Translations under genes and position numbers: made by a program
Assembly (NCBI GenBank): GCA_977020255.1
Contig: CDROCS010001161.1
Location: 1 to 64,000 of the forward strand
Length of the DNA: 64,000 nucleotides
Source: Obrimoposthia wandeli
Lineage: Eukaryota
Direction: 5' to 3'
Shown: positions 1 to 40,881 of the stretch, one piece after another
How positions within the stretch are numbered: the stretch's first letter is position 1
Layout of the letters: each line of letters starts with the position of its first letter
Notes under the pieces: generated by a model
Databases searched by the model: none
Told to the model about the DNA's origin: nothing
What the model saw: the letters and a program-made list of their open reading frames with translations, nothing else

Positions 1-3000
1 ATTGACACAGGATCAAGCGTAACAGTTTTAGACGAATCTTTCTTAAAAACACAACAAAAATTACTTCTTCTTAAGGAAAATAGTCAAATCACAGCAGCAA
101 ACGGTCAACCCGTAAATATAATAGAAAAATTAGACTGTCTTTTTAAAATAGGAAATAAATTCATAAAAATACCTACAGAATAATGTGTCCTTGCCAAATG
201 ATCATAGGATACACTAAGAAAATTAGAGTAATTTCCATTTTGATTTTGAAAAAAATCAAATAAAATACATTTAGACCTAAAGCCAAAAATGAATACGAGT
301 TTAGAAATAAAAGGAGATATCATTCTCCAAGAACAGAAACAATGTTACAACTAGAAACTAACATAATCACAGAAAAAGATGTATTATTTGAACCTTATAA
401 ATATCAACAAAACCTTGAACTACGTTTTGCCAAATATAATTTGTAAATAAAAACAACACAATACCAATCAGAATCCTAAATGCAGACATTAATGTAATTC
501 ATCTCAAGGAAGGAGTACGTCTTGGAAAAATAAGTGTTATTGAAAATATTGAATTAATAGATAATGAAAAAAATAGAAGATAAATCACGATAAATTTTAA
601 CGATATCAAATTAAATGATTATGAAAAATCAAAACTTAAAACTTTAACAGAAAAATATGATGTAATATTTGCTAAAAATGAATACGATTTGGAGTCGAAC
701 AAATTTGATAAAAACAAATCTTCCGTTAACAACAAACACAACAATAACAACGACCCTACCAGAATTTATATGCCTACAGAGATGAGGCTCAAAGACAAAT
801 AAAAGGAATGTTAGAAAATGAAATTGTTAGAAGAAGTTTTACTGCATGGACATCACCTGTTGTTTTAGTAAAAAAAAGAAAAGATGGTTCTTTGAGATTT
901 TGCATAGACTACAGAAAACTAAGCAGAAGTCACTCACAAAAGATGCTTATCCACTGCCAGAGGTGATGAAATATTAGACAAACTAAAAATGCACAAGTAT
1001 TTACAACTTTAGATTTACAGAGTGGATACTGGCAAAATAGAAATTGAGGAGTCAGATAAATATAAAACAGCTTTCTCAACAGGAGAAGGATTGTATGAAT
1101 TCAATATCTTACCATTTGGATTAACCGGAGCTCCAGCAACATTTAAAATCATATGAGCCATATTTTTAATGGATGCAGATCACGTAATGGTATATATCGA
1201 CGACATTCTTATTTTTCAAAAATTTTGAAGAACATTTAAAAGATTTAGAAAACGTATTCTTAAGATTACAGGTAGCAGGATTAAAACTAAAACCAAAAGA
1301 AATGTGAATGGATAAAAATAAAGTAAATTACTTAGGACATGCTGTATCAGCAAAGGAATACAACCAGACGAGAGTAATGTGAAAAAAGATTAAAAATTTT
1401 CAATCAAAAACAGTAAAATATACAGGAATTTTTGGACTTGCAGGATATTATCGTAAATTTATTAGAGAAATTTCGCCCAAATAGCAATACCATTAAATAA
1501 ACTTATTAAAAAAAATGAAAAATTTGAATGGGAAAAAAACAACAAAAGAATCTTATGAATATTTAAAACAAAAATTAATCGAAAAACCTATACTTAGATA
1601 TCCTAATTTTTAATAACTCATTTTTTAGTTATGACTGACGCCAGTGGTTATGCGTTAGGAGCAGTTTTAAGGACAACAGGAAAATAACGAAAAGATCATG
1701 TGATAGCATATGCGAGCAGAGGTCTTAAAAAACATGAGAAAAGAATTACTCAACGATAGAAAGAGAATGCCTAACTATTTAGCTTCGCAATGGAACATTT
1801 TAAACATTACTTATTAGGTCGAAAGGTTTATGTTTACACAGATCAAAACCATTACAATGGCTTTTTAAATCATAAGGATAACATCTGATTAATGAGATGG
1901 GCATTGATTTTACAAAAATATGATATTGAAATAAAATATAGAAAAGGAAAATCTAACGCTAATGCCCAGATTGTCTATGCGAATAAGAGAAGAAATAAAC
2001 GAAATAACTACAAACGACATCGAATTAAATCTTTTTACAATAATTCAAGCTAAATATGATGAAAAAGTAATTACTAAACTTCAAAGAAAGCAAAGATAAT
2101 GAAATTCAGCAAATAACTTAAATACATTAGCACAAACGAAGTACCAACAGATGAAAAATTAGAAAAACATTTAAAAATTCACGAATCACGATACAAATAT
2201 AGTAATGAAATATTATATTATTTAAATGACAAAATCTATATTCACTAGTTATTCCTAAAGAAATTCAGTGTCAATTACTTCTTCAATATCATAATGGAGC
2301 CCTAGGAGGACATTTATCATCAAAAAAGACACATTCACGATTAAATTTAAAATACTATTGGATTGACATGAAAGAAGATGTAAAAAATTGGTTTAAAACA
2401 TGTGAAATATGTCTTAAACGGAAAAATACTTTACGTACCACAAAAATACCTTTAAAACCAATACCTTATCCATCAGCCCCCATGGAAACTGTTGCCATGG
2501 ATGTAATGGGACCATTACCTGAAACACCTCGAGGAAATCGATATATAATAGTATTTTCTGATTATTTTACAATATGGCCAGAGGCTTTTCCAACACATGA
2601 TCATAAGGCTGAAACCATCGCGAAGGTTTTAGTCGAAAAAATTATTTTTACTTTCGGTGCACCCCGAAAATTATTAACCGACAAAGGTCCTGAATTTATA
2701 AATAATGTATTAGCGTCAATAGCTGAAATTTTTCACATAAAAAAGATCAATACAACACCATATCACCCTCAAACTGACGGGTTAGTAGAAAGATTTAATA
2801 GAACCCTCGAAGATATGATGGCATCATACACAAACAACAACCAAACAGATTGAGATTTACACATACCTCCATGCCTTTTTGCATATAGAACATCAGTACA
2901 TGCATCCACAGGAGAAACACCTTTTTATCTTATGTTCCTCAGAGATCCTCAAATGCCTATTGACCTAACATTACTACAACCTACTACACAATATTTAGAA

Positions 3001-3408
3001 ATACTTGAATATAAAATAGAAATTAGAGAAAGAATAAAACTAACATTCGAAAAAGCTAAACTATTTGTAAAAAACATACAAGAAAATTACAAAGAATATT
3101 ATGATAGAAGAACTAAGCCATCAAATATAAAAAGCGGAAGTAAAGTGATGATTCACAATCCACAAATTAATGTAGGATTGTCTCACAAATTATCAAAACC
3201 ATACAAAGGACCATATACAGTCATTAGTACCAACGGAACCAACATAACAACTAAACTAGATAATGAACCAAAATCAAAAGAAATAAGAGCACATATAAAC
3301 AGATGTCGAGAAATACCTGAGGAGAATACAAAAGTAAAAAGTCACAAATATAACTTAAGATCAACTAATGATAATACAGTTCTACAAATGTTGACAATAA
3401 AAAACTAA
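1..3408 (+). pseudogene. pol: Ty3/Gypsy pol (protease, RT, RNase H, integrase) with several frameshifts and stops
   Basis: IDTGSS at 1; [39 protein letters not shown] and YIDD at ~845-1210; TDASGYALGAVL and IAYASR at ~1630-1720; zinc finger H..GH/CEIC; integrase core 2368-2853 (MDVMG, TDKG, GLVERFN); GPY motif in 2932-3408. Confidence 0.97.
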
Positions 3409-3459
3409 CAAAAACAAAATAAAACTATTTTGAGTCATCAAACCAGAAATACAATAAAA

Positions 3460-4718
3460 ATGTCAATAAAAGAAATTGGTAAAATAATGATGTTATTGAT
3501 AATATATTTTACAATAAAATATAACCTACTGAAAGTAAACGCAACAAACATAAATGACAATCAATCAATCATACAACAACAAACAAATAAATACGACTCA
3601 ACAACTCATCTCATAAATATTTTGGACTAATAACAATAATACCTGAAATCACATCAATAAAGTTAAAAATTTCTCTTCTTACAAACAAAACAGGAAATGT
3701 ACAAATCACACAAACAGATAGAAAACAAAATATAATTATTTCAGGAATAAAATCACAAAAATATACAATACCATTTTTAAGAACAGAAACACAATATAAA
3801 ATAAGAATTAAGTCGAAATTAAAAAATATAACACTCTATGAAAGAATTATAGAAACTCACATATACCTAGCATCAATATTAAAAACAACAGCAAAATATA
3901 TATCAAAACATAAAATAATGATAAAATGGGAATTTCAACTAAAAATAGATGACTTAGATAAAGCCCTCATTAGAATTAGATATAGAGGACATAATGCTAA
4001 TTTTTGGAAAGACTCAGAAAAACAATTAGAAAATACACAAACTAAAACAAATTTAACCATAGAAAATATAAGATATCCAGAGAAAATAATAATGGATAAT
4101 AGAGAATGCCTTTTTTTTTTAAATCTTTTCACTAATAAACCAATAATGTACAGACAATGGAGTCAAAAGTTTGAAAGTTATAACAATCTAACAAAATTAA
4201 CAATTTTAGGAAATAAGATATCCAAACTATATCAACCTACAATTTTTTGTGGTCGTTGGTCACCAGTAAAAATTAAGAAATATGTTAAAGAAATAACCAC
4301 AAAACAAATGCTACATACCACAACATTTACATCAAAAATTTACAGAGTTACAAATCAAGTTGAAATTACGGAGAAAATAAGAATTAAATTAAAATTAAAA
4401 ACAACAAAAACAATATCCTATAAATCATTTATTGAAAGTTTAAAAATGCACTATGGTAAACAAGAACATTCAAGGAATGAAGATAAAAAAGAACTTATAA
4501 TAATAGTTATAGTAATCGAAATAATTACATTTATAAATCAAATATCATGGAGAATGTTAATTTTGAAACATACAAAAATGATAGAAACAAAACAACGAAA
4601 ACACTTTTGTGGCCCCCCAGGCCCTTTTACTATTTATATTATTCCCAAGGATGAGAATTCTTCAGAATTATCCATAAATACTGTAATAGAAAATAGGAAA
4701 AGAAATATAACACAATAA
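3460..4718 (+). pseudogene. Post-pol ORF: predicted type I membrane protein with FN3-like segments; one frameshift near 3620
   Basis: Signal-like MMLLIIYFTIKYNLLKVNA; the frame of ORF 3918-4718 is open back to ~3620; FN3-like KYTIPFLRTETQYKIRIKS and IMIKWEF...IRIRYRG...W...NLTIENI; N-glycosylation sequons; hydrophobic LIIIVIVIEIITFI near the C-terminus. Confidence 0.55.
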
Positions 4719-4912
4719 TCAAATCCTTTTTAAATAAAACCATTTAAGTAACAAAAAATGTTAGTACTATTAAGTAAATCTAAATTAGTTAGGAAATAGA
4801 ATAAAAATTTGATATGTGTATATTTTAAAGACGATTTAATGAAATAATATTAAAATAAAATCACCAGGAAACGCATCCTGAAATTTAATAATGGTTATTT
4901 TTAGATATAAAA

Positions 4913-5308
4913 ATGAACAGATTGGCAAAAGTTTGTAAAAAATGCAAAAAATTAGAGAAAAAGATTCGAGTAGTTTCCAGACAGCATGACGACTACTATA
5001 TAAAGATCACAACTCAAAATGAATCACTGAAACAGTCAATAAAACAAAGTGTGGAAGAAAAATTGAATAATGATATGACAATTGACGAACTAGAAGGGAG
5101 ATTAACATATAGTTTTGGCAGAATAGACTATTTAATACAACAAACTTTAAGTCAACGATCAACTATAGCCTCATTAAGAAGACAAATGATGACCTATAGC
5201 GATATGATAAACTTTTATATGACCATTAATCCTACTATCCCAACTAATACAACACTTGATGATGGATATGACTCGGATATGAACATTGGTGAACAAAATT
5301 CTGGTTAA
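4913..5308 (+). CDS. 131-aa hypothetical cargo protein with N-terminal CxxC and probable coiled coil
   Basis: Intact ATG-to-stop ORF with AAAATG context inside the element; heptad-like helical middle; acidic tail. Confidence 0.5.
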   Translation: MNRLAKVCKKCKKLEKKIRVVSRQHDDYYIKITTQNESLKQSIKQSVEEKLNNDMTIDELEGRLTYSFGRIDYLIQQTLSQRSTIASLRRQMMTYSDMINFYMTINPTIPTNTTLDDGYDSDMNIGEQNSG

Positions 5309-5476
5309 ACTATAACCATACATCCTTCTTTTGTACAAATTGTCTAACTTTTTATTAATAAGTTTATTTTCATGACAAATCCCACATACTGCATGGATAA
5401 GACTGATATTTTTATAACTTTAAGACTGTGAAATAATTATATTATTGTATTCAACTAACAAATTGATTAAAGCAGA

Positions 5477-6645
5477 ATGGATAACAATCACCTGGATATG
5501 ACTCCAGACCAGCTCACTCGGTCAGATCAAACAAAAAGCACAGCAAAAATAGAAAGAGGAAAAACGGAAAATATGCCAGAAAGGTGGTATTTAGCAAAAT
5601 TCCTGTATCAAAAGATGCGTCAATTTAGCATTGCATACTTTAGAAACAACGGAGGAAGAAAAATGTTTTCAAATCAAACATTTCTTCCTAATAAGTTAAA
5701 AATTACCACAGAAGAAAGAACAAGCGCACTTATTTTTTCCAATGAAAAAAGACCAACCATATGGCTCTCAGCGAAATATTCCCCGATATTAATTGTGAAA
5801 AAATAGATATTCACGTGGCACTAGGAGTGGCCCATTTAAAAACCAAATCAGATAAGACATTAAACTTTCTGATGATAGGAAATCACACCTACACCTTACA
5901 AGCAGCTCAATTAGAAAATTAATATAGCATAAAAATAGGAAGAGGACCAAATCTATTATTTATAGAAAAAATAAGAAAAGCAGAAGAACCTCAACAAATA
6001 GCCCTTTTCGAATTAAAAAACGCACAGAAACCAGCAATTTTATTCCTCGATTGCGAAATGGTGATATCAGTAGATAAACAGCCAGTTTTAGCAAGTGTTT
6101 CTATTATAAATTACATAGGTAACGTAATTATAGATACACTGTGCATAACTAGAGATAGAGTAAGAAATTACGTTACTAGAATAACTGGACTGTCAGATAG
6201 AAAGTTACAAGGATGTAGAGATGCTGATGAAGTAATTGAGGAAGTAAAAAACATTGTGTATGGTAACATCATCGTAGGTGTGGGACTAACAAACGATTTA
6301 AAAGCTTTACGCCTACAGAAATGAATGTTATTCAACATTGTTGATTTAGGAATATCTAAAAGCATAAAATCAGAACTAAATCACAATCACCCAAATATTG
6401 GACTCGCCAACATGGTGCGGAAATACTTAAATATAGAAACACAAAAAGGAGTCCACACTAGTATGGAAGATGCAAATCACACCCGAAAGATTTTCATAAT
6501 AAAGGAGGAAATGTTGAATAGAGAGTTTGATTTGACCGAGGTGATGAATCCACCATCTAGCGAGAACAACCCCAGTTCATCGTTCTCACATAAGACCGGA
6601 AACTCGGAGTCCGGTACACAAAACTCCCCGATTTTGTTGGATTAA
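5477..6645 (+). pseudogene. Cargo ORF ending in a REX4/ISG20-family DEDDh 3'-5' exonuclease (frameshift ~5760-5800, stops at 5920 and 6322)
   Basis: ExoI FLDCEMV (6043-6063), NYVTRITGL, ExoII IVGVGLTNDLKAL, ExoIII HTSMEDA; ORFs 6058-6324 and 6325-6645 are in one frame, separated by a single TGA. Confidence 0.88.
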
Positions 6646-7064
6646 GGTAGTATTATTATTATTTTTATTCTGTTTTCATTCTTGTCTAAATTTTTAACGA
6701 TATTTAACCAGACATGATTGTGATTAGTAAAACATTGATCAGTTATAAGTTATATAACTTACAAATAATAACATATAACATACAAACAACACTAGTTAAC
6801 AATAGAAACAAGACAAAATAGCTTTACTAATAATTAAGAAAAAAATTATAATTCTGAGGACAGAGACTTTTATGACCCTGAGGATTGTTGGGAAAATATT
6901 AAAGCTATTTATTTAAAAAAATATATAAATATATATATAAAATTTTTAAAAAGTAAAAAAAAAAGAATTAATTAATTAAAGAATTAATTAAGAACTTTCC
7001 TTAATTAGGGAAAAGTTCTATTTTGAAAATATGCACTTTGGCATTTTAGTCTCTAGATAAATCA

Positions 7065-7116
7065 ATCTCCGACGGGAAAAAAGCCCGTTTCGCCCTGCCG
7101 GGCTCATCAGGGAGAT
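7065..7116 (-). ncRNA. Type I hammerhead ribozyme, canonical core, GUC cleavage site
   Basis: Minus strand reads AUCUCC-CUGAUGA-GCCC(GGCA)GGGC-GAA-ACGGG(CUUUUUU)CCCGU-C-GGAGAU. All core nucleotides and all three stems are perfect. Confidence 0.95.
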
Positions 7117-7535
7117 GGCTTGTTATCTCTGACTTTGCGGTGGATTCCGCGAAGCCAGAGATAACAATAATAAAGCCAGGGAAGAGGGAAAGATTCCCCT
7201 TTCATGTGCCGACGAATATCGTCGACAAGTGATGTTAGTGTGCGCAAGTGCACAATTCAACACACACACACTCACTCAACTTCTTTACTCACTCACAACT
7301 CACTCAACATTAACACTCACATACTCACTTACATACTCATCTCACTACTCACTCACTATTATCTGTGTGCGGTTTTTATTCCTGCAGTCAGATTGGAGGA
7401 TTTCGTCTCTGGGAAGAACTGCATAATTATCAATACTGCTGCAGTAATGATATAAATAGCAGCAATGGCCATTCAAAAATATATGGTTATTTTACTACAA
7501 ATTGGATCATAAAAATCATATGTTATTTTACTACA

Positions 7536-7827
7536 AATTGGATAATTGATATCAACCTATTATTTGTTGCCAGAAATTGGATAATTGATATCAACCTATT
7601 ATTTGTTGCCAGAGTTGGATAATTGATATCAACCTATTATTTGTTGCCAGAGTTGGATAATTGATATCAACCTATTATTTATTGCCAGAAAATTGGATAA
7701 TTGATATCAACCTATTATTTGTTGCCAGAAACTGGATAATTGATATCAACCTATTATTTATTGCCAGAGTTGGATAATTGATATCAACCTATAAATTATT
7801 GCCAAAATTGGATAATTGTTATTAACC
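7536..7827. repeat. Tandem array, 38-39 bp unit, about 7.5 copies, inside LTR A1
   Basis: Unit TTGGATAATTGATATCAACCTATTATTTGTTGCCAGAG. Confidence 0.95.
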
Positions 7828-8000
7828 AAAAAATATTTATTTGCTGAATATATTATTAAAGAAAACAATTTTTTTATTTTTCTCTCATTTATAACATGTG
7901 TGTGAATTCATAGAACTTTATTAAAGATAAACGTAGTTGTGATTAGTTTACCAAATTAGAATTGATCATGTTGTGTCATATATACGATACTTTTTAGATT

Positions 8001-8964
8001 TGTAAGGAGTAGGATTTTAATATTTATATAAATAATTAATTATTTTATAAGAAAATAAAACCTTGAAAGCTAGAATATTGATTTCCATTAAATACCAAAT
8101 TGAATATTGATTTTCTTTAAATACCATTTTGAATATTGATTTCCGTTAAATATCGTTTCAAGATTGATTCTCACTTAATACCAATTTGAATATTGATTTC
8201 TGTTAAACATAATTTTGAAGATTGAATTCCATTAAATACTAGTTTGAATATTGATTTCAATTAAATATCTTTTGAATATTGATTTCCGTTAAATATCGTT
8301 TCAAGATTGATTCTCACTTAATACCAATTTGAATATTGATTTCTGTTAAACATAATTTTGAAGATTGATTTCCATTAAATACCAATTTGAATATTGATTT
8401 CCGTAAACATCATTTTGAAGATAGATTTTCATTAAATACCAATTGAATATTGATTTTCATTCAATATCATTTTGAAGTTTGATACCCATTAAATTTAATT
8501 TTAAATAGGGAAGTACGGTAATTTTTCCTACGTCCAAAGTTTGGACCCTAAATGTTAGAGCAAATTTCTCAGAAATTAGAAGCGTGCAAATTATTAGATA
8601 CGTTTAAAATCGATACGTTAAGACATCCCCATTTGTGTGACGTTTAGTGCAGTAGTTAGGACTAATTGTTGTAATTTTTAGGAACCTAGTTAGAGTGTAT
8701 TGAACAAATCCCTACAACTGGGCAAGTACCAACCCACCATACACTACACCACAATAAGGGAAATTGTCCAGTACCCCATGCACACAACTCTTTACACATA
8801 TCCACAACACAGATTGTAAACAAAACCTTCAGATTATAAATTGAGACAGATAAGATTAAAATCTAAATAGGCCACGAACAACTGCAAGCCCTATTGCTAT
8901 AGAACTCACGTTGGGGGCCTCCATACGAGGATCTATTTAAGAGTTTCAAGTAGAAACCCCAACA
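8001..8964 (+). mobile_element. Solo LTR family B copy 1 (internally shorter)
   Basis: TGT...CCCCAACA flanked by TSD GATT (7997-8000 and 8965-8968); its 3' part is the reverse complement of the starts of the 12868 and 34057 copies. Strand is relative only. Confidence 0.88.
8073..8490. repeat. About 29-bp tandem array with a ~143-bp higher-order repeat
   Basis: Unit GAATATTGATTTCCATTAAATACCAATTT; the variant block starting at 8131 recurs at 8274. Confidence 0.9.
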
Positions 8965-10058
8965 GATTTATTTTTCAGAAAATATAACTTTAAAAATGAT
9001 TTTGTTACATATTTGAGGAACAAAAAAAGTTCTTGAGGTTATAATTTTAGGATAAAAGGTACTTTGGGTAAATTTTTAGTTTGTAGTAAAAATAAATTTT
9101 GGATTGATGCAGATAACTCATTTCAAATTTCTGTTGTGGTTGTTAAGCCAAATAAAAATTTTAAACAACAAAAACTATTTAATTATTTTTCTTACAGCTC
9201 AATATTTAGTACTTGGACCCTGTTTTCGAATCACATTAATTAATTATATTAATCACTACCTGATAGAGAATTTGAAATTTTTTTGGGAAACGATAACCAA
9301 CTTTCCACAATGTTTTCAAATTAGATTTTCTATATTACAATAGTTTCTTAATTACAATATTTTCTACGAGGTTTAAATTGAGGCTGTTAAATGTCCAAGC
9401 CCTTAAACCTATATTGATAGTTTTAAAAAGTCCTTGGTAAATTTTGATCGGTGAACATAAGCTCTTTGAAATGCTGCTTTGTATTTTAAATTTAGTATTA
9501 ATTTTTCTTTTAAAATGCATTTAATTGTCATTCATTATAAAAAGTATCATATGAGAATTTAATATATGGTTAATTTAATGGAAAAATTGAAATTGAGAGT
9601 TTGACGAATCGATATTTTAATTCTGCTCGGTTAAGATTCAAATCGCCGTCAAACGTGAATTATCTGTCCTATTTTGAGATAAAATCAATCACCTAATTGA
9701 CTTTTTTCACTTTAAAATATAACATTAAAAAATCCTAATGATAATTTGAAATTTTTAAAACTTAAACAAATTATTTTAAGGATTCGTTTCGATTTATGTT
9801 TGTATAAATAATTCGTGCAATAATTGTGGTAGAATTATTTCAATTCACTTGTCAAAAATATTAAAAAATGGATTTTTATTTTGAATTATCTGCAGATAAA
9901 CTAAAAATTCATATAATATAAATCTGTCAATAAAGCTATTGAATTTTTATATTCATTATTATTAGTTTAAACTATTTAATATATTTACAAAAACTATAGA
10001 CACGTCTGGAATAATATTGAATGTACATGTAGATTTTCTCATTCTGCGATGAAATGGT

Positions 10059-12867: not shown

Positions 12868-14923
12868 TGTTGGGGTTTCTATATGAAACTGTTTTTCTAA
12901 TATAGAACCTCTGAATGGAGGGCCCCAATGTGAGTTCTATAGAAGCAGGACTTGTAGATGTTTGTGGCCTACTTAATGTTATGCTTGCTTGTCTCTAAGT
13001 TTTTCTGAAGGTTTGTTGTTTCGAAATTTAAAGGGTCTATAACAACGCTGTCTGGTTGTAGGAAATCGTTTATTACTAAGCACACTAAATTAACACGTCT
13101 AAGTACGTTCTAAAAATTACAATACAATTCCTAAGACTTTCGCAAAGTCTCTACACAAGTGGGGATGATCCACGTATCGAATTTAGTTTAGGCTTGGTTG
13201 GTCACTAGAGTCTTTACTCTAAAAATGTGACAAGGTTAAAGTAATATGTTTTTGGAGAGCTGGTTGCTCTAAAATTAGGGAATGAGTTTAGAGAGCTGGT
13301 GCTCTGAAAATAGGTGTTTAGTTTGTTTATTTTTAATTTAGTTTCAAATTTCTTGTTACAACACTTGGTAACAAACTGTGGACAATTTTCTATATCAATT
13401 GATTTGGAATTTATATAATTTTATTTCAAAAACGATTCAAAATGATTCGGAGTTGCTTCGAAATTGGGTTAGGGTTGTATAATTTTATCGAATAAATTAT
13501 TCAAAAATGATTATATAATTTTATTGCAAAATTACCCAAAAAGGATTATATAATTTTATCGCAAAATTATTCAAAAAGGATTCGACAATGATTTTAAATA
13601 TACTTGGAATTATATAATTTTATCTCAAAATTACTCAAAAATGATTATATAATTTTATTGCAAAATTATTCAAAAATGATTATATAATTTTATCTCAAAT
13701 TATTCCAAAATGATTATATAATTTTATTGCAAAATTACCCAAACAGGATTATATAATTTTATCTCAAATTCTTCCAAAATTCTTCTATAATTTTATTCAC
13801 GCTCCCACTCTTAACTTACCGTGATCTCTTTTCGAGAAGCCTCTCTTCTAGATCACACGAGTAGTCCGGCGATTCGCTTTGGTTGCTCCTTCCAGACATG
13901 GTTATGTTCCGTGCGTCTGCAGTCCTCTCTTTCCTTAGCTCCCGTACGGCTCGCTCCGAGATCGATCTCCTAGGCTCGGTCGACGGTTCCTTCCTTGGGT
14001 TGTTCTGTCTTTCGGATTGCGCTCCGTTTAAGGTGGCGGTTGATTTGATTACCGTGATCCTGCACGTCTGGGTTTTTAAAGTGTTCCTTGTCGGCTGCGC
14101 GCTTCTCTTACCTTTATCGAAGCTGCTTCCTCGATCCGCTCTCGATTTCCGAGATATTCTTCTTCCGATTTATTTCCACTTTCTGATCTGCAGGATTATC
14201 CAACTTTGGGATGCAACTCTTCTTTTTTGGCTCCTCTTAAAAACTCGATTTATTCCGACTTTCTATCTTTCTGCGCTGCTCGAATTTGATCTACGAGCTT
14301 CTAATTTCTGACGTGAAAATGACTGCAATAATCAAGTAAGTGTTTTGATTTATATAGTTTACCTTCTTCGATAGGCACTTTCCTTTTTCGGTTCTGTCAA
14401 TAAAGGCACTTTCCTTTTTTCGGTTCTGTAAATAAAGTTTTATTTACTTGCACTTAAAATAAGTGTACTCACTCTGGTGTCTGGGATCCGGCTGGACGGT
14501 TCGTAGCGTCCTCTGGTAGCGTCACTAAGTGGCCTAATGGATTTTGTTCAGGCCGGCTGTTTGGCTCCCAATGGCGTCGTACTACTTCTTGACTAATGGA
14601 AAATCTATTCCTCCTCAACTTGATTTACTACACTCCTGCTAATTGAGTTTAGCTTCTGGACTTTCTATTTAATTAATTACTTTTTTCTTATTAATTAGTA
14701 TTCTAACTCTTTTTTGGGGCCTTTTGGTTAAGTTTAAAATCCCTTATATACAGCACACGCTTACACATGACCTTCATGGTCCTAATATTTTCCCACTGAT
14801 TTTATTTTTATAATTTTAATTTTATAATTAATTTTATCTTAATTATAACCTTGCTTTCAAGGATTTTTATTTTAGTATAAAAATTATTAATTATTTTAAT
14901 TTAATCAAAACCAAATCTTAACA
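12868..14923 (-). mobile_element. Solo LTR family B copy 2 (2056 bp)
   Basis: TGTTGGGG...TTAACA with TSD AAAT (12864-12867 and 14924-14927); both ends homologous to 34057-36123. Confidence 0.9.
13400..13800. repeat. About 35-bp tandem array inside LTR B2
   Basis: Unit approximately GATTATATAATTTTATTGCAAAATTACCCAAAAAT; boundaries approximate. Confidence 0.85.
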
Positions 14924-15700: not shown

Positions 15701-17473
15701 GCTGAAAGAATGGTTGGGGTTTTCTTCCAACTAGAATCCTCGTATTGAGACTTCAAAAGTGAGTATTGTAGCAGTAGGACTTACAGATGGACATTATCTA
15801 CCTGTTCTAGTCTGAAGGTTTCTTGTGATGTGTGAAATATAATGGTAAAATCCCTAAAACTATTGTAATGTTGTGTGAGGCTGAACAATAAGCCGGTTAG
15901 GTCAAATGCGATTTTAGTTCAAATGAAGTCTAGCAAAGTCAAGACCAGGAAATTGGGCTAAAGTAAGCCGTACTTAATTGATGCTGACAATAACCTTCCA
16001 AATAATCAGAATTTAAGCTAGCATCTCACAGATTAATTCTCGTCTCAATATGTAGTTTAATTACACTAAATTAGTGTTGACTCAAACGGTGGAATTATGG
16101 TAGCGACGGTGTTATCAAAAGTCTTACTCATTTCGGTTGAATATATTTATTCCTATTATATAATTTAAAATATATAAAACGTTTAAAAATTAGACACTTA
16201 AGAACTCTTTAATAACTTTATGGTTTGTTTTTCTTCGAACTATGTTATACACGTAAAAGAGTTCGAACTATTATGTTGTTAAATTTATGAAACGGATTCT
16301 AAATTATTATTCGATTGAAATTTATGTTACAGATTCAAATTATTACTCAATTCGACTTAATATTACTGATTCAGACTTACGGTTGTTATATGGTTTCTTG
16401 ATAATGGGTAATACAGCAACAATTTCAAATAAAGCAACTTGGATTCCAACAATTGGTTTTATCAAATCACGCTAAACAATCCTCTCTAAATATTGTTAGT
16501 TAATCAATAAAATCAATTATATATATATGGATACCGAATCAAAATGTGAAATTCACGGACTATGTGAATTTAAGCTACTTCCGAATTCAGACCATCGCGA
16601 CTTTCGGCAAGGCGATTTCGATTCTACCTGTTATCGTTTATTTTTTAACATTCTTTCTTTACTTAAGAACACATTCTCTTGGCCTTTCAAGGTCTTAATT
16701 TATTTCTTTAAGTTAATAAAGATTTAATTTTACAACCTCCAAATGAAAAGATTATTTATTTAGAATATATTCTTTTTTATTATTTTAAATTCAGTCTTTC
16801 TAATACTAACAGATTTCTGACTATGTTTTGCTTCCTTTTACAAATATAATATTACTGTTATATTTTTTTTAATAAATATTTATGCAAAAATACAAAAATC
16901 TTACATCTGAATGTAGATTTATCAGATTTGCAATCAAAGTTAGTACATCAGAAAACTAAAAAAATATTGAAAATTCTCATGGTTAGGGAACTCACTGATT
17001 TTTCAACATTATCAATCATGCTATGCTGCACAATAAAGAACAAACAGTCGTCTGAAGATTTCATTGATGCCCTGAATTCTCGAAACTATATCTTTGAAGT
17101 CCAATCAGAAATGTAATTGTTTGCCCCATTAATTTTTGTATTGAATTTAATTTGCCATTTAAAATATAATTTTCAAATAAAAAAACATTAAAACATAAAA
17201 TACAGTTTAAAATATGTTTGTTATTTTTAAAGAAATTTTCTTTGTGAAATTATTCAAATTTGTCCCAAATGAAAGAATACGAAATATAGTCTATGTATTT
17301 CAGAATATTAAATTCCAAGTCATTAAAGATGGATAAATATCACAATTAACAAATAAAAGAAGATCGAAACAAAAATCCGAAAGGTAGTATCAAAGGCTTG
17401 ATGTTTCAATAAGTAAACATCTCTTAATATCGTCGTTGTCAGTGTCACACAACCTTATTCACGATCGCGAGGG

Positions 17474-20400
17474 TCAGGCCCAAACGTCCTCCATGTAAAC
17501 CTTGTTGACACGCAGCCCTGTCACAAAAGCCTCCGCCATGTGCTCAGTGACCAGTGTTTCATTGTGACCTTGCACCACCCGACACATGGCCTGCTGGACG
17601 TCCTTGACCATGGAACCAGCGTCCCCGCACACAAACACGCGGGCACCAGCATCAACCAATAGTGGGGCCAGTTCAGTGGCATGGTGACGCACACAGTCTT
17701 GTACGTAGTGGCAATCCACAGGTACGCACAGACTACTGCTGCTACCATTTTTGCTTGTGTCGCGGGAGAAGCAAACACAAAGATGCGCCAACACACCGCG
17801 ACTCAGAAATCCCTCCAACTGCTCCCGGAACAGGAAGTCACGGGCTTCGTGGCGACAGCCGTGAAAGAGCCAAACTGAACCGATATCCATCCCAGAGCTC
17901 TAAAATATTATTGGACATGCTACTTACATTTATCAATAATATACGATTTTTCAAAAGTTTTCTACAGCAAATTCTTTTAAACCTAGTAACTACGAGAAAG
18001 ACAATAATTTTATTTACTACTTTTAGAAGCAAACATGGTTTATAAGAATTAAGATAGAGATGGAAATTTAATTTTTTAAATCTTAACATCCACATAAGAT
18101 TTAATTGAGGACATTTTGAAACGTCTTGAAATGCTTTTACCGTGTTTTTTAACCGACACAGAGAATCTTTGCACTTTGTCAATTATAATTGTCTGTCACT
18201 CAAACCAGATATGTAATCCCACGAGTTGTGGGTATTGTTTTGTGACACATTTCAAGTGGGTTGGAAAACTCTTAAAGAGAGTTTATTGAAAATTGTCTAT
18301 TATTTGTCACTCAACTTTCAATTAAAAGTCCGCATTATTAGAATAACGAGACAGAAGTGTAAAGTACCATTTCTAGCTCATTGGTTGCCACTGTCCTTGA
18401 CTAACAAACTGTAGCTAACGGATGGATTAGGTGATGAGAGCCATTGATAAAGAAATAACTTGCATACTATCTTGATTTCTGTCAATTTAACAGTCGGGGA
18501 GTACACTTATAATCCTAGACAATTAATGTGAGGCGCGCCTTTGTAATAAGCGCACCCTGATTTCCAGTCAACTAAAAGCAGAAAATCTGCATATTCTCGT
18601 CCAGAACAACAAAATTTAAAATTTGCTGCGTTTGTGCGGTTGTTGACTCACCCTCAGTCGTTCAAAGTGTTGTAAGAACCCGATGAATGGAGCAACTCCA
18701 GTACCCGGACCAATCAGAATATGCGGCTTGTTCGTGTGCTCCGTAGAAATACAGAACCCGTTCAAGTTCTTCCGCATGTACATCGGGATCCGGATAACTG
18801 GCTCCACCTCGAGATCACGACTAGCAACACTGCAATTGATCAGTGCATGATAAATATGTGGTCAATAAAATTATCTTGAACCACTTTAAAAATCTATAAC
18901 AAATCAAGCACGATAAAAAACCAAAATTATTAAAAGTATCGAATATTACCATTTTATTACAATAACGTATTGAAATCTTCGCTAATTCCTTTATAAATGA
19001 CGACTTGAGATTAAACTTGACATATTAATTTACCATGACTGTTTGTAAATAAACTAGGGAAATCAAAAAATATCCAGATACAATACCTTTTTTATTTTCA
19101 ATCGGAATTTTGGAGTAAGGTCGTCATTTGACATAAAAAGACGTTAGTGATAGTGTCAATTAAAGTCAATTACAAACCCTGATTGATGAGGGTGACTGGA
19201 AAGACAAACACACAATACTAGATCAGAAGAAGCGGACTGCAAAACTTACTTCTCCAGCCATGTGGTGCAGACCCCAGTGAGAGGTCTTCGTCGGAATTGT
19301 GCAACTGGTGCAATGTCGACCTTACTAAATGCGAATGACAGCGAGTCAAGGTCGCAGAGAGAGTAGGAACGCGGCTTTAGTCGAGGAAGAACCTCAAGCA
19401 GTCGCGAAAGAGGCAGCTGGCAATCTGGAAACCAGTTCAGCAGATCCAGAACAGCCATGCTCGGTTCTCGCATGCATCTGAGAGTCAGGAGCATTAATCT
19501 GTAATCAGTTATGTCAAAGGTGACAAATTTAACTTTGCAGTAGTTTTCTAACAAAGTAACGTATCTATATTTTTACGGCAACTTTAATATTTTAATTGTT
19601 ATCGAGTAAAATATTTTTTAATACATTTATTAGTTGGTCAAAATACAAATACAGCTCCAAGACAGTTTACAAGAACAAGCTAGCTGATGATAAAACTGAA
19701 TGTGAAAGCAATCTAAGAAGCAGCACCAGCTTTGTTCGATCGTCGAGCTGCTTCGCCAGGGCTCTTCCTGAAATAAAAAGTCAATGATGGAGCGGAGATA
19801 GAGAATTGGCCGAATGAGTGACTTGCAACAAAATGCACAACATTTTCTGACGAAGAATCAAAAAACTACCTGAAAGATGTGCAGAATTCATTTACTACAA
19901 CAAAAACGCTGGAAAATTGTCTAACGAGTACCTTTTTGTTCACAGTAAAAGGGATTTGAAAGAAACGCTCTCAGACAAATGTGCACACTCCTGTCAAATG
20001 AGAGCACTGAGATAATTACGAGTGTGGAATGCCACATTTTATCCGCTTGAAAGTTTAACAAAAGTAGTTTCACCTGGTGTAAAGGCTCTGTCCTTCTTTG
20101 GCACACAGCTGCATCAGCCTCTGTCGAGCGGCAGACCCGGCGACTGCGTGCTCTGCCATGATGCGCAGTCCTGGCTTGGTTAGTGGAGCACGCAGGTCCA
20201 CCAGCCACTGCAGAACTGACCGCACAGACACCGGTCTCGGTGAGGTCACATCAAGATGTCCGGGCAGCTTGGGGGCACGACGACCTGGCGGGGCCGGCAA
20301 CAGTCGCAGCTCCATGGGACAGTCACGCTGTGCCTCAGGAACCCCCAATCGCACGAGGATGTCGTCCACCTCCCGCTGTGAGTTGCGAGGCAAGACCGAG

Positions 20401-23400
20401 ATGGAGTCGCCGGCATTCCATTTCCACTTGGGCTCTTCCTCCGCGACCACCGTCACTCTGTGTGACCCAAATGAGTAATCAGTAGTCATCCCTTCAAACA
20501 TCACCAGCTACTAGTTGCATTTGAATTCATAAAATATGCTCAGTAAAATTTGAAAGGCACAAAAAGCGACTGTGGTCGACTTGAACAGACACTCACAAAT
20601 GAACTGGCTTGACTGCGAACTTCTGTGTGATGCGCCTGACTGCTTGAAGACGGCCAATCGTCAGCGGAGTCTGGGCAGCAGGTAGCGCAGCAGCAACCTC
20701 AATTGGCAGACTGCAGTTGACCTTATCGCTGGTGGCTTCCTCGTACACGATGTCCAGGAAGGCAGACGACAGTGGAGGTACGGTGAGAGACATGTTTGCG
20801 AGCTCAGTCGCCAATTCGTCTCCCAGAAGGGATACAGTGGAACTTACAGCTGGCGGCGGGATCGGTACACAGATCTCGCTGAGACGGAGTTGGACCAGCG
20901 AAGAAACCAATTCGCATTGGTTAGAGCCTTGCTCCGATTTGAGGGAGACAAGACTCAGATAAAGACCTTCCAACCATGGCTCTACGACCATCTCCATTCC
21001 GACAGCATCATCGGCCCATCTGCAGATTAGCAAACTGACGTTGTGAAAAAATAAAACTATGCTGATTCAGAATTAGAAGAATAATCATCTTGTTTCACTT
21101 ATCAAACGTTTTGGATGATAAACCAATGATCTGAAATAATACATGCTAATAAAAGATTACAGACGGACAATGTTATGGTAACAGTAATAAAAATAGTAAA
21201 CTAAATTTACGGGTGAGCATTGCAAATTTGTTGAATTGCATTTGTGTCCATATATGGGTATCAAACATCTAGTTTATAAAAAAAATAACACTAAAGAGTC
21301 AACAAACAATTAATAAGTGTTTACAAAATATTCTCAAAAGTAGCAGTCAAGAGCAATGCTAAAATATTAACTCTCAAAAACACTTTCAGAATTATTAATC
21401 AATCAAATTATTAAATCTGTACATAAAACATTGTTTAAAAGCTACGTTGTTAAGGTTTCATATGTTGATATATAAAGAAAAAAAAATTTATATAAATGAA
21501 GATACCATTATGTTAAATAAGTTGTAAAGAGGTATAAGCTTTCAAATATTACTTAGATTGAAATAAAAATCAATAAATACTGTTTCTTTTTCGATATTTG
21601 GGACCTTCACTTTTGAAAAATTATTGAAATTCATGTGAAAAATATTTTAATAATTTCCGAAATAATATAATTTGAAATAAGTGGCGAAAGAAATAAAAAC
21701 AATCTTAATTATTAAAATGTATTAAATTTTTTTTGTAGGAATATGTAAAATTATCTAAATTTAAATTATTTTCTTCAAACGATGAATCACAGTATTCTTG
21801 ATTTTAAATAAAATTATAAATCTAGAATCCCCGGAAAGTTATCTCTGTTTTTAATATAAAATGCATAACTACAGACTGCAGATCAAAATAAAAATGATAA
21901 GGGTATTATCGAACAAATGAAATAATCAAAAATTCTGAGATTTATCATTTAATTATCAAATAGCTGTAGATGATTATGAAGGAAATAATAAGATTACACA
22001 AATTCACATATTCTAAAAATTAAAAGGTAATTTAATTCATTGTAATAATCAAGTTTTTTTTACTTCTTTACCACCTTTTTTTAAATTAAAGTATTTGAAA
22101 ATATATTTCTGAAATTAGTAAATTATTTTGTAATCAAAAATTCATTTTCAAGTTAGCAAAATTTTAAAATATTTGAAAAATTATTTTTACCTTCGATAAC
22201 TTCTCTTGAAAATTTCTAGTCACATTACATAATTAAAAGTACACGATGTTCTGAAGTGTATTAACCGATGATAAGATAACAATCCATTGCACGAAACATG
22301 AAAACGTTACCAGTTTATATTAAAATTTTAAATAAAATAATGTTTGAAAAGAATTTTCCTTTTAAGTATGTGTTAGCATTTGTAGAAAAATAATGTATAA
22401 TTACTGCATTACTTAAATTTAGTTAACTAAAGTCCAATACGCAACATCAATCTTTTTTTTGTGAAAAATAAATATTCAAACATGACAAAAAATATAATAA
22501 TGTTTAAAGATTATTTATGAGATGTGAAATAAATTTTAATTTACAAAATAATACTACACCCTATCAAAGTCGATATTACCGATAGCAATATGTTTAGTGC
22601 CGTTGACTCGTAAGTTTGTAATGTTTAGATGTTTTTTTAATAATTTTAGAACTAATTTGGATTATTATACATGAATAAGACAAGAAAAGGTGATTATTTT
22701 ATTAAAATTATGTTAAAATGAACTCAGGTACTAAAAATGTCATCTTTGTCCAAACATTGAATTGTATGGTTATATCCGAGAAATTGAGCCATATATATCA
22801 GTGTCGTGTACGTATTTTTAACCCGCCTCTCCATTAACAAATTTACCGCCGTTTTTGGATTTTGATACTCCTGTGAAGCCCCTGCTGATATTATTAGTTT
22901 GCTTATATAGTTTGCAAACAATTGCCCTGATTTATAAAAAGAAGATGCCAGTCTCATGCTTCAATCAAGGCCTCTTTGAGCTCATAATATTCTTAATTAT
23001 GAAGAAAACTACATTTCCTATGATTTTCTCTGAAAAACGACTAGCATCGGAGTTACGGTCAGTTATAAAGTTTTTTTTAAATATAATATTATAAAACATA
23101 ATTTCCGAATCTTCATAAAACATTTAATAGTTCTTCTACCATCCTTTCATCGTTAGGGGTATATTTTCTATGTATTTTAATCAAAAAAGCGGCACTAATG
23201 ACTTTTTACGGCACTATTCAATTTGTTAACACACCCTATAGTAAAAAATCACTAACAATTTTTTTTCCTGTCCTGTAGGTGTGTGACTGCATGCATTCTA
23301 TAGTAAGTAATTATTCAGTTTTTACGGCAACATTCTTTTTGGATAGATGCTGTTTTTTTATCGGTAAGTTTTACTATGTATTATTATTAATCTTATCTTA

Positions 23401-24038
23401 TACTATAGAATTATATGCCGACTCTTTATAACGGCACTAATCAGTTGGATTAGGTGTATATCAAATTTATGTAAGGTTTCCAAAATTAACTGAATCAAAT
23501 GTACTGTTATAAAAATAGGATCCAGCATTATTCTTAACTTTTACGAACAATAATATAACTAGAGTTAATGTAGAATTTAGTCTTTTAATTTTTGCTTCTC
23601 AATACCTACAAATAGTTTTTTTATAGTGATATAAATATAATATAACAAATATAACACAACGGTAACTCACGCTGAAGGATAAAATCTCTTAGCACCCAAA
23701 CGTGCCAAATTAGTATCAATTAGTTTACCACATCGACAAAAGTTAGAGTAATTTGTGTCACCGAGTCCAAGTACAGTGTAATTCAAATGCGATAAAGCAG
23801 TATCTGACAACTTTAAAAGTCTTAAAAATCGAGAAGCATTCTCTGGAGCATCCCCATCACCAGTTGTGGAACAAATTATCACAACAGTTTTTATAGCATA
23901 CAGATCATAACTCTTTTCAAGTTCGTCTAACTCGAATAAACGAATATTCAACAGAGTGCTCATATTGTTAAACACTGTTTCAGCCATACATTTAGCTTGT
24001 CCAGTTTGTGAGCCATATAAAATACAACTCATTGACAT
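17474..24038 (-). CDS. MTRR: Methionine synthase reductase, 6 exons: 24038-23671, 21019-20597, 20457-20074, 19477-19250, 18829-18652, 17899-17474
   Basis: Flavodoxin motifs YGSQTGQAK, STTGDGDAP, LGLGD; MTRR-type ADDAVGMEMVVEPW; FAD motif PRSYS; IGPGTGVAPFIGF; LFHGCR, VFVCGD and terminal YMEDVWA. GT-AG sites chosen by hand join all exons in frame. Confidence 0.93.
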
Positions 24039-24173
24039 AAAACTTTAAAATAAAAGTGTCAATTTTTTTTAAATTCAGTCAAAGAAACTCTGTACTTGAA
24101 TTTTTACAGTAAAAACAATTAGTCTAAATTAAAATCACATGGTTAAATACATTATTTCCAAATACATATAAAA

Positions 24174-26230: not shown

Positions 26231-26356
26231 AATATTATTTTTAACGTTTTGTTTTTGTTACTTCTTTCATTGTTAATTTTATTTATGACAATTTAATGTC
26301 ATAAATAAAAATAACAATGAAAGAAGCAATAAAAACAAAACGATAAAAATAATATT
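26231..26356. repeat. Near-perfect ~126-bp foldback (hairpin or MITE-like)
   Basis: Two ~60-bp arms (AATATTATTTTT...TTTATGACA and TGTCATAAA...AAAAATAATATT) around a 5-6 nt loop. Confidence 0.85.
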
Positions 26357-26847
26357 ATTATTTTTATTTTTTTTACCTTTATTATTCATCAATACTAAGA
26401 TTTAGTATCATACATTTTTATTATATGTATAAAAAGTGAATTCAACCGTAAATTGATATGTGATATATTTTATTTTGAAAGTTTTCTTCATATAGATGTA
26501 AAAATATATTTGTAACATAAAATAGTTAAAGAAATTATTTAAATTCTAAATACCGAAATCGAAATCGAAATCTTCTCTTTCAAGATTATAGGTTTGATAC
26601 TTACTTTAATTTATTTGTATATGAATGAATATTTTGCTTATACATTTCTAATGAAATTTATTACGACTTGCAGGTCAACTTCACTCTGTACTTAAACTAG
26701 CTAAATGTAAATGCAAATCACCTCAATGGCACAACCAAAGGTCAATATACTAGTAGGTGTGTAAGGGTAGATGTTAAGTTTAATTAATTAAAAGTTAATT
26801 AAAAAGTGCATTCGGTGCACATTTTTAGAATCATTTTATTTTGGTCA

Positions 26848-26899
26848 GTTCCCGAACGGATTATCACCGGTTTCGCCCTGCCGGGCTCATCAGGGGAAC
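26848..26899 (-). ncRNA. Type I hammerhead ribozyme (UUC site, one C-U mismatch in stem III)
   Basis: GUUCCC-CUGAUGA-GCCC(GGCA)GGGC-GAA-ACCGG(UGAUAAU)CCGUU-C-GGGAAC. Confidence 0.9.
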
Positions 26900-27500
26900 G
26901 GCAGGTTATCTCTGACTTCGCGGTAGTTATTTCCGCGAAGCCAGAGATAAAAGTGACAGAAGAATGTCACTGTTTGGGATTCGGTCGCAGATCGACTGGA
27001 CTAATTTGATTCAGTTCGATCAGCGATCGAGACAAATTTAGCCATATTTAGATGGCATTACAGATCGACTGGACTCTTGGTTTATTCCTCTCTGCCCAGT
27101 TCCAATTGCCTGGAGATGCTGCCATTTCTCTCTCTCTCTCTCCCTCTATGCGTGGCTGTGTCGGGATGCATCTCCCCACAACCGCAGCTATCTCCCTCTG
27201 CTGTCAGTCAGTTGCTGCCACTGCTGCGGCTCGGCGTGTGGGTGGATGCAGCGCGGGATTCTCGGATGCGGTCGGTGTTTCGTGTCTCTCGGCAACAACT
27301 ATCCTATCGCAGTTTTGACGGCTAGCGCTGCTATTTCTCTCTGCGGCGAAATTCTCCCTCTTATCTCTTTTTTGAATGCAGAACTATAACTGGGATTGAT
27401 TTAGAAAATCAGCCATAAAAATTAAAATATTTTACAATTTTTGAAAGTCAGACAAAAATATAAAATGATTTGGAAATTTCTTTTTAATTCATTGGAAAAT

Positions 27501-28075
27501 TTATAACAATTATTTGAATTATTATTTGAAGAAGATATTCATTTATAAATTATAACAATTATTTGAAGTTATTATTTGAAGAAGATATTCATTTATAAAT
27601 TATAACAATTATTTGAAGTTATTATTTGAAGAAGATATGCATTTATAAATTATAACAATTATTTGAATTATTATTTGAAGAAGATATTCATTTATAAATT
27701 ATAACAATTATTTGAAGTTATTATTCGAAGAAGATATTCATTTATAAATTATAACAATTATTTGAATTATTATTTGAAGAAGATATTCATTTATAAATTA
27801 TAACAATTATTTGAATTATTATTTGAAGAAGATATTCATTTATAAATTATAACAATTATTTGAAGTTATTATTTGAAGAAGATATTCATTTATAAATTAT
27901 AACAATTATTTGAATTATTATTTGAAGAAGATATTCATTTATAAATTATAACAATTATTTGAATTATTATTTGAAGAAGATATTCATTTATAAATTATAA
28001 CAATTATTTGAATTATTATTTGAAGAAGATATTCGTTTATAAATTATAACAATTATTTGAAGTTATTATTTGAAA
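27501..28075. repeat. 49-50 bp tandem array, about 11.5 copies, inside LTR A2
   Basis: Unit TTATAACAATTATTTGAA(G)TTATTATTTGAAGAAGATATTCATTTATAAA. Confidence 0.95.
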
Positions 28076-30696: not shown

Positions 30697-30782
30697 CGTC
30701 ACCCATAACCCTACCACTAACGCTGTCACCAACCCTAACTCTAACCCTAACCTTATTTCTAACTATCAAACTCTAACTCTAG
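30697..30782. repeat. Degenerate CCCTAA-like tract
   Basis: ...CATAACCCTACCACTAAC...CCAACCCTAACTCTAACCCTAACCTTA... Confidence 0.5.
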
Positions 30783-32335: not shown

Positions 32336-32614
32336 CAGTCAGACCTCTACATAACGAACACTTTTTTTTAACGAACGGTAAACCAAAATTATTATTAATA
32401 ATTGAAAAAAAAAAATTGAAAAGAATTGAAAAACATTTTAGCTTCTAAAAAACCAAAAGACATTACTGACTATTTGGTTAGGAAAAAATAAATACATGTC
32501 TTATTGTAGTTTATTTTGTTTTATAAATAAAAGTTTATTAAATTGTTCGTTCCTTTTTTTAACGAACATGGAATTTTTTGAAAAGTTGGTGTTCGTTATG
32601 TAGAGGTCTGACTG
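32336..32614. mobile_element. Tc1/mariner-superfamily MITE
   Basis: TIR CAGTCAGACCTCTACATAACGAACAC at both ends, flanked by TA. Confidence 0.92.
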
Positions 32615-32987
32615 TATATTGATGTGTTAGTTTCAAAAATAGTGGCCAATAGGAAATGATCTTCAAATATGTTACAAAGGTTGATAGCCAACAGCCAATA
32701 AGAAATTATAAAAATATAATTTAGTAGATAAGTTTAAAATAGTTAAATAAAAACAATATTAAAAAATACTAACAATATTAAAAAATCAAGAAACATATTT
32801 ATTTTATGGAATCAATATTTTAATGTCATTACAATATTGGGAGTATTAATAATTGATTCTTACTTCAATCGTGAATATTTTTAGAACAAATTACAAATAT
32901 TTACTTGCATTATTTGCGATATAGTTTCCTGAATTATCCACAGACATAGTGACAAGAAGTAATCTACACCTGAACAATACACATACA

Positions 32988-33885: not shown

Positions 33886-34056
33886 TACATACTTACTGGT
33901 TTCTGTCATAAAATAATGGCTAGCAAGTATGATAGAAGCGATCGTATATGAATAATAAATTATTTGTGGTAACTTATCTTTCCGCGGATACACACGTACA
34001 TAAAGTAATAAAATAGTAACTAAGACACATGTGATTAACTGAATGCATTATCAATT

Positions 34057-36123: not shown

Positions 36124-36186
36124 AATTAAGCTAACTGTCTATAATATAATGGGTTTTTAAGACATAAATTTTGTAAACCAAAGGAT

Positions 36187-36910: not shown

Positions 36911-36999
36911 AAGAAAATCAATTTGAAATAATAATTTATTTCCGATTATTTTATTGTTTTTAGTTACCCACTGTTTGTCTTTGTTGGAGTGAACGATTG

Positions 37000-39786: not shown

Positions 39787-40881
<1,095 letters not shown>

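Follow-up and report, generated by a model that had tools for sequence, protein, structure and literature searches.

The window, a stretch of 64,000 nucleotides of Obrimoposthia wandeli DNA, contains a two-domain gene of about 386 codons on its forward strand at positions 5477..6645 (ATG at 5477, stop at 6643-6645), read here by three-frame translation. About 188 codons precede the exonuclease part, in which a DEDDh 3'-5' exonuclease domain of the ISG20/REX4 type occupies 6037..6510 (+). The five catalytic residues named by an earlier note on this DNA were all found in place, i.e. D at 6049 and E at 6055 in FLDCEM (ExoI), D at 6295 in NDL (ExoII), and H at 6454 and D at 6469 in HTSMEDA (ExoIII). 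When the break is read as X, the C-terminal portion scores above the cut-off of the Pfam RNase_T model, against which the earlier note had proposed an HMM search (E = 1.4e-6; 29.4 bits, cut-off 24), and its best solved relatives by phmmer are human ISG20 (5.4e-10), ISG20L2 (1.2e-9) and SDN1 (1.1e-5). Together with the fold comparison described below, these results bear out the previous assignment to the REX4/ISG20-type DEDDh nucleases. The region upstream had been called unrecognised, with a length of about 190 aa. The length holds, but the region contains a conserved domain at 5570..5975 (+; boundaries approximate), which alignments, motif counts and the modelled fold of a relative (P0006) identify as a putative domain of AlkB-like type (2OG-Fe dioxygenase fold) that lacks HxD. 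Two motifs of the family, PNKLK and IHVxxG, are both present in it. In the window copy, a frameshift near 5746-5760 and stops at 5920-5922 and 6322-6324 interrupt the gene, a state on which the earlier note was silent. ExoII and ExoIII are separated by the second stop, and therefore this copy is incapable of giving an active enzyme: it is a dead pseudogene.

The two-domain gene belongs to a Gypsy element that is decayed and highly repeated; it is the final ORF there, between pol and a probable 3' LTR. Pol (1..3408, +) was delineated by Pfam and by tblastn with the polyproteins of relatives, and comprises the end of the protease region, RT plus RNase H, and integrase. The RT/RNase H part (~443-1975) has many frameshifts and is 34-37% identical to the relatives' polyproteins, while the integrase (~2209-3408) matches rve (4.9e-11) and Integrase_H2C2 (2.2e-18) in Pfam and reaches 50% over IN in the tblastn search. 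The Ty3/Gypsy order PR-RT-RH-IN, with an H2C2 integrase, is seen in the window and in four of the metagenomic loci described below (L001, L002, L006 and L011). The gag gene and the 5' LTR of the window element lie beyond the window edge. That the nuclease is carried by a Gypsy element, as had been claimed, is borne out by the integrase and RT/RNase H upstream of it and by the position of its relatives, which are also found behind pol.

Between pol and the two-domain gene, a broken membrane-protein ORF (3460..4718, +) has a signal-peptide-like start, an FN3-like ectodomain and a hydrophobic stretch near 4497-4540. It had no match in Pfam; ESM Atlas FN3 clusters at 0.89 provide a lead only, and weak Fn3 matches (E = 0.005-0.07) occur at the same position in L001 and L002. 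The stop closing the window pol is absent from most contigs aligned there, and the membrane-protein ORF was probably once an extension of the pol polyprotein, an arrangement seen in L002 and L006. The ORF list also gives a small coiled-coil-like ORF of ~131 aa (4913..5308, +), for which Pfam returned just sub-threshold coiled-coil matches. Neither the FN3-like nor the coiled-coil ORF had a significant tblastn match among the 11 loci. Downstream of the gene, a GAGGACA motif and a purine-rich tract (6856..6885, +) precede a stretch starting with TGTTGG (6886..7500, +; the end near 7500 is tentative), which is a probable 3' LTR, judging from its likeness to L011 and a rise in depth. The arrangement GAGGACA...TTTT...purine tract...TGTTGG is common to window positions 6856-6891 and L011:7172, and a GAGGAC motif 3' of the gene was seen in only 2 of the 11 loci. 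LTR pairs were sought in the six loci over 4 kb and none was found; the window shows one probable 3' LTR plus a PPT. A Helitron end near 7050, judged by eye, was dropped once the PPT/LTR pattern had matched L011.

To describe the abundance of the element, contigs from four runs, all of a single sample and study that may be the source of the window, were aligned to window positions 1-7500 at 80% likeness. In X4, the summed contig depth was 27,000-42,000 over the gene, 28,000-33,000 over 4251-5500 and 32,000-81,000 over the RT; it climbs at 7001-7250 and is about 50 at positions 7409 and 7452, outside the gene. Summed depth is no copy number, and no single contig spans the whole of 1-7500, but values this high imply that the element exists in hundreds of copies, not in a single one. 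At each of the gene's two internal stops, the window copy disagrees with over 99% of the depth; therefore, both stops are private to it.

Relatives of the protein were collected in several ways. A full-library phmmer search gave 2046 matches at E ≤ 0.001, of which the best 150 were examined. The top match, P0003, is 37% identical and covers the N-terminal region as well, and 18 of these best 150 matches share the N-terminal domain (profile E < 1e-3), ten of the 18 lying outside the seed. In a word-indexed protein search, none of 219 candidates for the C-terminal part was confirmed, and 5 of 6021 were found for alignment A1; among viral contigs, none of 24 pattern matches was confirmed. Scanning of JGI metagenome contigs produced 64 pattern matches, which resolved into 11 loci, ten of them from one assembly, so that host sampling is narrow. 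Five loci had enough upstream DNA. In four of these (L001, L002, L006 and L011), an intact RT-RNase H-integrase polyprotein is followed by the two-domain gene, which is a separate ORF outside the pol polyprotein in all four; in the fifth (L004), the contig is cut inside a polyprotein whose end resembles that of L002. The remaining six loci have less than 1.8 kb upstream, which is too short to show pol.

Two phylogenetic analyses place the window protein with these element proteins. The first covered 160 exonuclease domains (161 were given, and P0145 was dropped as too short; L005, L007 and L011 were omitted because they duplicate library proteins). The window protein fell inside a group of 33 rows, separated from the 127 other rows with an SH-aLRT of 99; besides the window protein, the group holds all 28 proteins with the N-domain and four in which it was not detected, at least three of these being short. 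On the cellular side, 14 of the 127 rows were looked up: nine were named, from fungi, animals or a choanoflagellate, five of these nine as 'RNA exonuclease 4'. The second tree used a mixture model on 45 chosen rows (21 element, 24 cellular). With bootstrap convergence incomplete (0.977), it supports the split between element and cellular proteins at 100/99 and joins the window protein to P0003 and P0006 at 99/87. Both trees are unrooted and lack a REXO1/PAN2 outgroup. A phylogeny against host REXO4/ISG20L had been suggested earlier; the comparison with cellular REX4-like proteins made here puts the element proteins on one separate branch of an unrooted tree.

These data bear directly on a recent accidental capture, in which a processed pseudogene or fragment of host REXO4/ISG20L would have landed in one element copy. 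Such an origin could explain why the window copy is broken and why 127 of the best 150 library matches fall outside the element branch, the named ones being mostly 'RNA exonuclease 4'. Against this, the depth over the gene is high and matches that of the element, the N-domain is common to element proteins only (18 of the best 150 matches), and the separate branch is accompanied by the same gene behind pol in other elements. We regard a recent capture as extremely improbable, and a recent processed pseudogene was rejected on depth, branch and pol linkage. The gene is therefore not an adjacent host gene or a pseudogene absent from other copies, the outcome that would have spoken against the earlier reading. 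That reading itself, a captured host nuclease, is contradicted as far as recent capture from this host is concerned; the gene is instead old cargo of the element lineage. It is a standing accessory gene of a large, cargo-rich invertebrate Gypsy lineage, and its status as element cargo with a two-domain build is very probable.

The exonuclease half is well conserved across the family. Of 29 family rows, 26 retain the ExoI D and E together with the ExoIII H and D; the remaining three are dead paralogues (L001, L002 and L008). The ExoII residue is D in 21 rows, E in five and Q in three. Nei-Gojobori dN/dS was calculated for 11 pairs. For the exonuclease, it ranged over 0.04-0.18 in the five pairs with unsaturated dS; for the N-domain, nine pairs were unsaturated and gave 0.08-0.64, with seven of the nine at ≤0.18. 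These values are rough because dS is near saturation. Both domains are under purifying selection. Fold models were built on the intact relative P0006, which is 32% identical to the window read-through in alignment A1 (pLDDT 85.9 for the whole protein and 85.7 for the N-domain alone). The best match of its C-domain is ISG20 (VIA Z 22.4, rmsd 2.0, 161 residues aligned), followed by PAN2 (19.4), and the top Foldseek match is ISG20L2. RNase D gave a Z of 11.3, which together with the ExoIII His in 26 of 29 rows rules out membership in the bdelloid DEDDy group and upholds the earlier distinction between this DEDDh protein and the bdelloid cargo. Arenavirus NP had also been brought in for comparison; the two are alike in being DEDDh nucleases, but the resemblance is loose (Z 10.9 for LCMV and 10.6 for Lassa, vs 22.4 for ISG20), and close kinship was ruled out by these low values. 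Intact copies are predicted, with high probability, to be active RNA exonucleases.

For the N-domain, Pfam gave no convincing match in any of 20 rows, and neither a PDB sequence match nor an Atlas match was obtained. The best structural match of the P0006 N-domain is Ofd2 (Z 11.6, rmsd 2.8, 132 aligned), followed by ALKBH6 (11.0), vCPH (10.8), ALKBH7 and NMAD-1 (10.6), P4H (10.4) and ALKBH5 (10.2); vaccinia C16 appears in the same list at Z 8.6. All of the top 23 rows are 2OG oxygenases or related proteins, with matches spanning almost the whole domain, and Foldseek ranks ALKBH8 first. On the strength of this model, the N-domain is assigned the double-stranded beta-helix of AlkB/2-oxoglutarate dioxygenases. 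The matches are just 6-11% identical, and AlkB proteins tie with prolyl hydroxylases within one Z unit, so that RNA binding by the domain is put forward only as putative. In BFVD, the best matches are large viral polyproteins (TM up to 0.71), and below the top polyprotein come replicases of Picornavirales, vitivirus and closterovirus type; an RNA-virus AlkB as donor of the domain may be taken as a weak lead from the models.

An HxD/E motif occurs in only 1 of 29 family rows within 35 residues before the IHVxxG His, where we presume it should lie from AlkB topology, and a conserved distal His or Arg for 2OG binding was sought in the same 29 rows and not found. With the AlkB fold present and the HxD metal motif absent, the domain is not an AlkB member by catalytic signature, and it is predicted to lack dioxygenase activity. 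Conservation persists elsewhere in the barrel, i.e. the His of IHVxxG (27/29), an acidic residue (25/29; Glu in 23, Asp in two) and a Pro (27/29). These positions could be read as a rebuilt site, with the N-domain still serving as an enzyme or ligand sensor that modifies RNA before or after cleavage, and the same barrel fold does host metal sites in cupins. Because HxD/E is almost absent and the distal His/Arg is not conserved, we consider a rebuilt site improbable and retain the reading as a pseudo-AlkB domain.

Taken together, the following mechanism is proposed. An ancestor would have fused a REX4/ISG20-type exonuclease to an AlkB-fold domain, in an order of events that we infer; the exonuclease has stayed catalytically intact under purifying selection, and the AlkB-fold domain has lost the motif of its Fe/2OG site and yet is conserved. 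The protein, presumably made from the separate 3' ORF, would degrade single-stranded RNA in the 3'-5' direction by a two-metal exonuclease mechanism, while the pseudo-AlkB barrel could bind RNA, possibly at methylated bases, and so steer the nuclease. Its targets may be host defence RNAs: silencing small RNAs or the precursors of these, or replication by-products that stimulate immunity. The analogy with counter-defence draws on ISG20, which reportedly degrades m6A-modified HBV RNA selectively (PMC7046284), on SDN1, which degrades small RNAs, and on the host-interaction cargo of the elements. ISG20-family enzymes also cut ssDNA, and 2'-O-methyl ends such as those of piRNAs hinder them. Inactive dioxygenase folds can also serve as protein-interaction modules, vaccinia C16 being an example. 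The whole scheme, a nuclease for ssRNA 3' ends directed against host RNA defence and aimed by a pseudo-AlkB RNA-binding module, is the best explanation that we can offer, and we judge the chances for and against it to be about equal. By analogy, counter-defence is a reasonable candidate for the main job, held slightly more tentatively than the scheme itself. A still bolder version is rather unlikely: a dead AlkB, perhaps derived from an RNA virus, would read methylated RNA for the fused ISG20-type exonuclease against host silencing RNAs, across a widespread env-carrying invertebrate Gypsy lineage, with the dead paralogue as a regulator in some branches. If true, one protein would do the job of the m6A reader plus ISG20 of vertebrate antiviral defence, turned against the host.

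The other genes of the relatives help in weighing this proposal. L006:1-9621 encodes a single-frame polyprotein of 3207 aa with a fusion glycoprotein of Monjiviricetes type (E = 5e-94) in frame before PR-RT, extra aspartyl-protease-like domains, RT-RH-IN and a C-terminal membrane protein, a layout resembling that of Burro. Ankyrin repeats are present in L001, L002 and L004, those of L001 and L002 lying in the polyproteins 3' of the integrase, and an ORF 3' of the exonuclease gene at L008:4038-4625 encodes a ubiquitin-like protein (Pfam ubiquitin, 6.6e-7). The polyproteins at L001:1-6660, L002:3-7106 and L011:1-4773 have a second aspartyl-protease-like domain after the integrase, and also a weakly supported signal-peptide/FN3-like/transmembrane segment; a counterpart of the ubiquitin-like ORF, 3' of the exonuclease gene at L002:10906-11517, had no Pfam match. 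Such neighbours (ankyrin, ubiquitin-like, FN3-like membrane and fusion-glycoprotein cargo) point to interaction with the host and count against a replication helper, that is, a nuclease that works inside the particle on the ends of RNA or cDNA of the element itself, trimming primer, 3' overhangs or by-products, while the N-domain docks it to the ribonucleoprotein. The position of the gene outside the pol polyprotein argues the same way, as does the fact that most Gypsy elements replicate without such a nuclease. The strong purifying selection would fit a replication helper, and comparable roles were proposed for the DEDDy ORF3 of bdelloids (PMC5408684) and, on DNA intermediates, for the DEDDh nuclease of KolobokD (PMC9587614). 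We consider help in replication the less probable course, albeit one to be taken seriously, and continue to prefer action on host defence RNAs.

In five of the 11 loci, a tandem, catalytically dead paralogue lies directly upstream of the active gene (L001:6867-8246, L002:7283-8740, L008:64-1434, L004:2318-3790 and the start of L003). It has lost the ExoI and ExoIII residues (LSSRF/LSTRF/LSTKF) and is under purifying selection (dN/dS 0.11-0.14). A conserved dead partner suggests a regulated, potentially toxic enzyme, and the nearest solved relatives process rRNA or small RNAs (ISG20L2 in ITS1 processing, PAN2, SDN1). Both observations would suit an enzyme that degrades or trims the ends of host mRNA, rRNA or snRNA in favour of element expression, with the dead paralogue as regulator or decoy. 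The window element has no dead paralogue, and broad damage to host RNA would be costly to an element with hundreds of germline copies; we therefore think host shut-off or remodelling of host RNA unlikely.

Several known systems share parts of this design. Among them are the Juno and Vesta LTR elements of bdelloids, which carry a DEDDy ORF3 whose activity had not been demonstrated in that study (Rodriguez et al. 2017, PMC5408684). Both systems are Gypsy-type, encode a 3'-5' exonuclease of the DnaQ superfamily in an ORF of its own 3' of pol, and keep the catalytic residues in an element gene pool apart from cellular homologues. The bdelloid enzymes as described there are RNase D-like DEDDy proteins (a DEED variant), whereas the window family is of the DEDDh ISG20/REX4 type and adds the N-terminal AlkB-fold domain and sometimes the tandem dead paralogue. 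For the other half, a Phalaenopsis Gypsy element encodes an AlkB protein with RNA-binding and m6A-demethylating activity (Alvarado-Marchena et al. 2022, PMC9289625). In both cases the Gypsy element is large and has an accessory ORF of AlkB fold, with action on RNA demonstrated in the orchid and predicted here. The orchid protein is a recent capture, active and close to plant demethylases; the domain of the window family lacks HxD, is fused to a nuclease and has no match to AlkB at the sequence level. There is thus a precedent for each half, nuclease cargo in bdelloids and AlkB cargo in the orchid, and the fusion itself was not found in the literature searched.

Burro, a group of giant Gypsy elements of planarians, as described by Arkhipova and Yushenova (2019, PMC6431247), shares with L006 the in-frame mononegavirus-type fusion glycoprotein before PR-RT and the possession of accessory ORFs. 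It also shares, with different relatives, the ankyrin repeats (L001, L002, L004) and the ubiquitin-like domain (L008). An exonuclease or AlkB protein is not named in that description, the comparison being by description rather than sequence, and the BIR, BCL2, MATH and dUTPase of Burro were not seen in the available parts of the loci. KolobokD (PMC9587614), also a mobile element, carries an accessory DEDDh exonuclease too, but it is a DNA transposon whose nuclease is exuperantia/TREX/ERI1-like, not ISG20/REX4. Neither AlkB nor exonuclease cargo was found in the available text of a survey of env-carrying elements in eLife (PMC13524379) or in that of an annelid LTR survey (PMC8220671). The literature searched contained no ISG20/REX4-type nuclease in LTR elements and no AlkB-DEDDh fusion; Repbase and Dfam were outside its scope and may already hold an exonuclease annotation.

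Among cellular proteins, ISG20/ISG20L2, yeast REX4 and plant SDN1 resemble the family in fold, in the DEDDh motifs, in LDCEM and in H-x4-D. They differ from it by an identity of only ~22% in the structure alignment as well as by branch; a [VI]GH motif occurs in 126 of 127 cellular rows vs 12 of 29 family rows, and the N-domain in none of the 127 cellular rows. Viral counterparts exist for both halves, namely the AlkB fold in replicases of RNA viruses and the DEDDh nuclease used for immune evasion by arenavirus NP. Viral AlkBs generally retain the metal site that the N-domain lacks, and the NP exonuclease, a distant structural match, degrades dsRNA.

Few counter-defence proteins are known from animal retrotransposons. 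The window family represents a second, independent nuclease type besides the bdelloid DEDDy, and adds a pseudo-AlkB/DEDDh fusion and natural pairs of active and dead paralogues. Because natural intact proteins of the family are small, give good models and lend themselves to direct assay, the function of such cargo is now open to experiment. Should the N-domain read methylated RNA, the epitranscriptome would be tied to transposon conflict in animals, and the protein would be a compact modification-guided nuclease.

The remainder of the window is AT-rich animal DNA (~30% GC). Exons of a host gene for methionine synthase reductase were recognized at 17417-24044 (-), with best animal matches of 52-54%, which suggests an invertebrate lacking near annotated relatives among the proteins searched. 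The GC-rich core of the probable 3' LTR (7062-7164) recurs at 26845-26950 and 33079-33135; the stretches 26760-27390, starting with TGTAAG and showing no target-site duplication by eye, and 33079-33135 are possibly solo LTRs of related families. A second decayed retroelement (37578-39229, -) holds RT/RNase H fragments and a fusion-glycoprotein remnant that is 27% identical to the env region of L006 (E = 4e-23). In addition, there are a dispersed repeat family (13150-13311, 34353-34509 and 8818-8971), two long MITE-like inverted repeats (26231-26356 and 59708-59897, with arms of 60 and 42 nt, 93%), and minisatellite arrays at 7535-7841, 8041-8555, 27421-28147 and 34587-35235.
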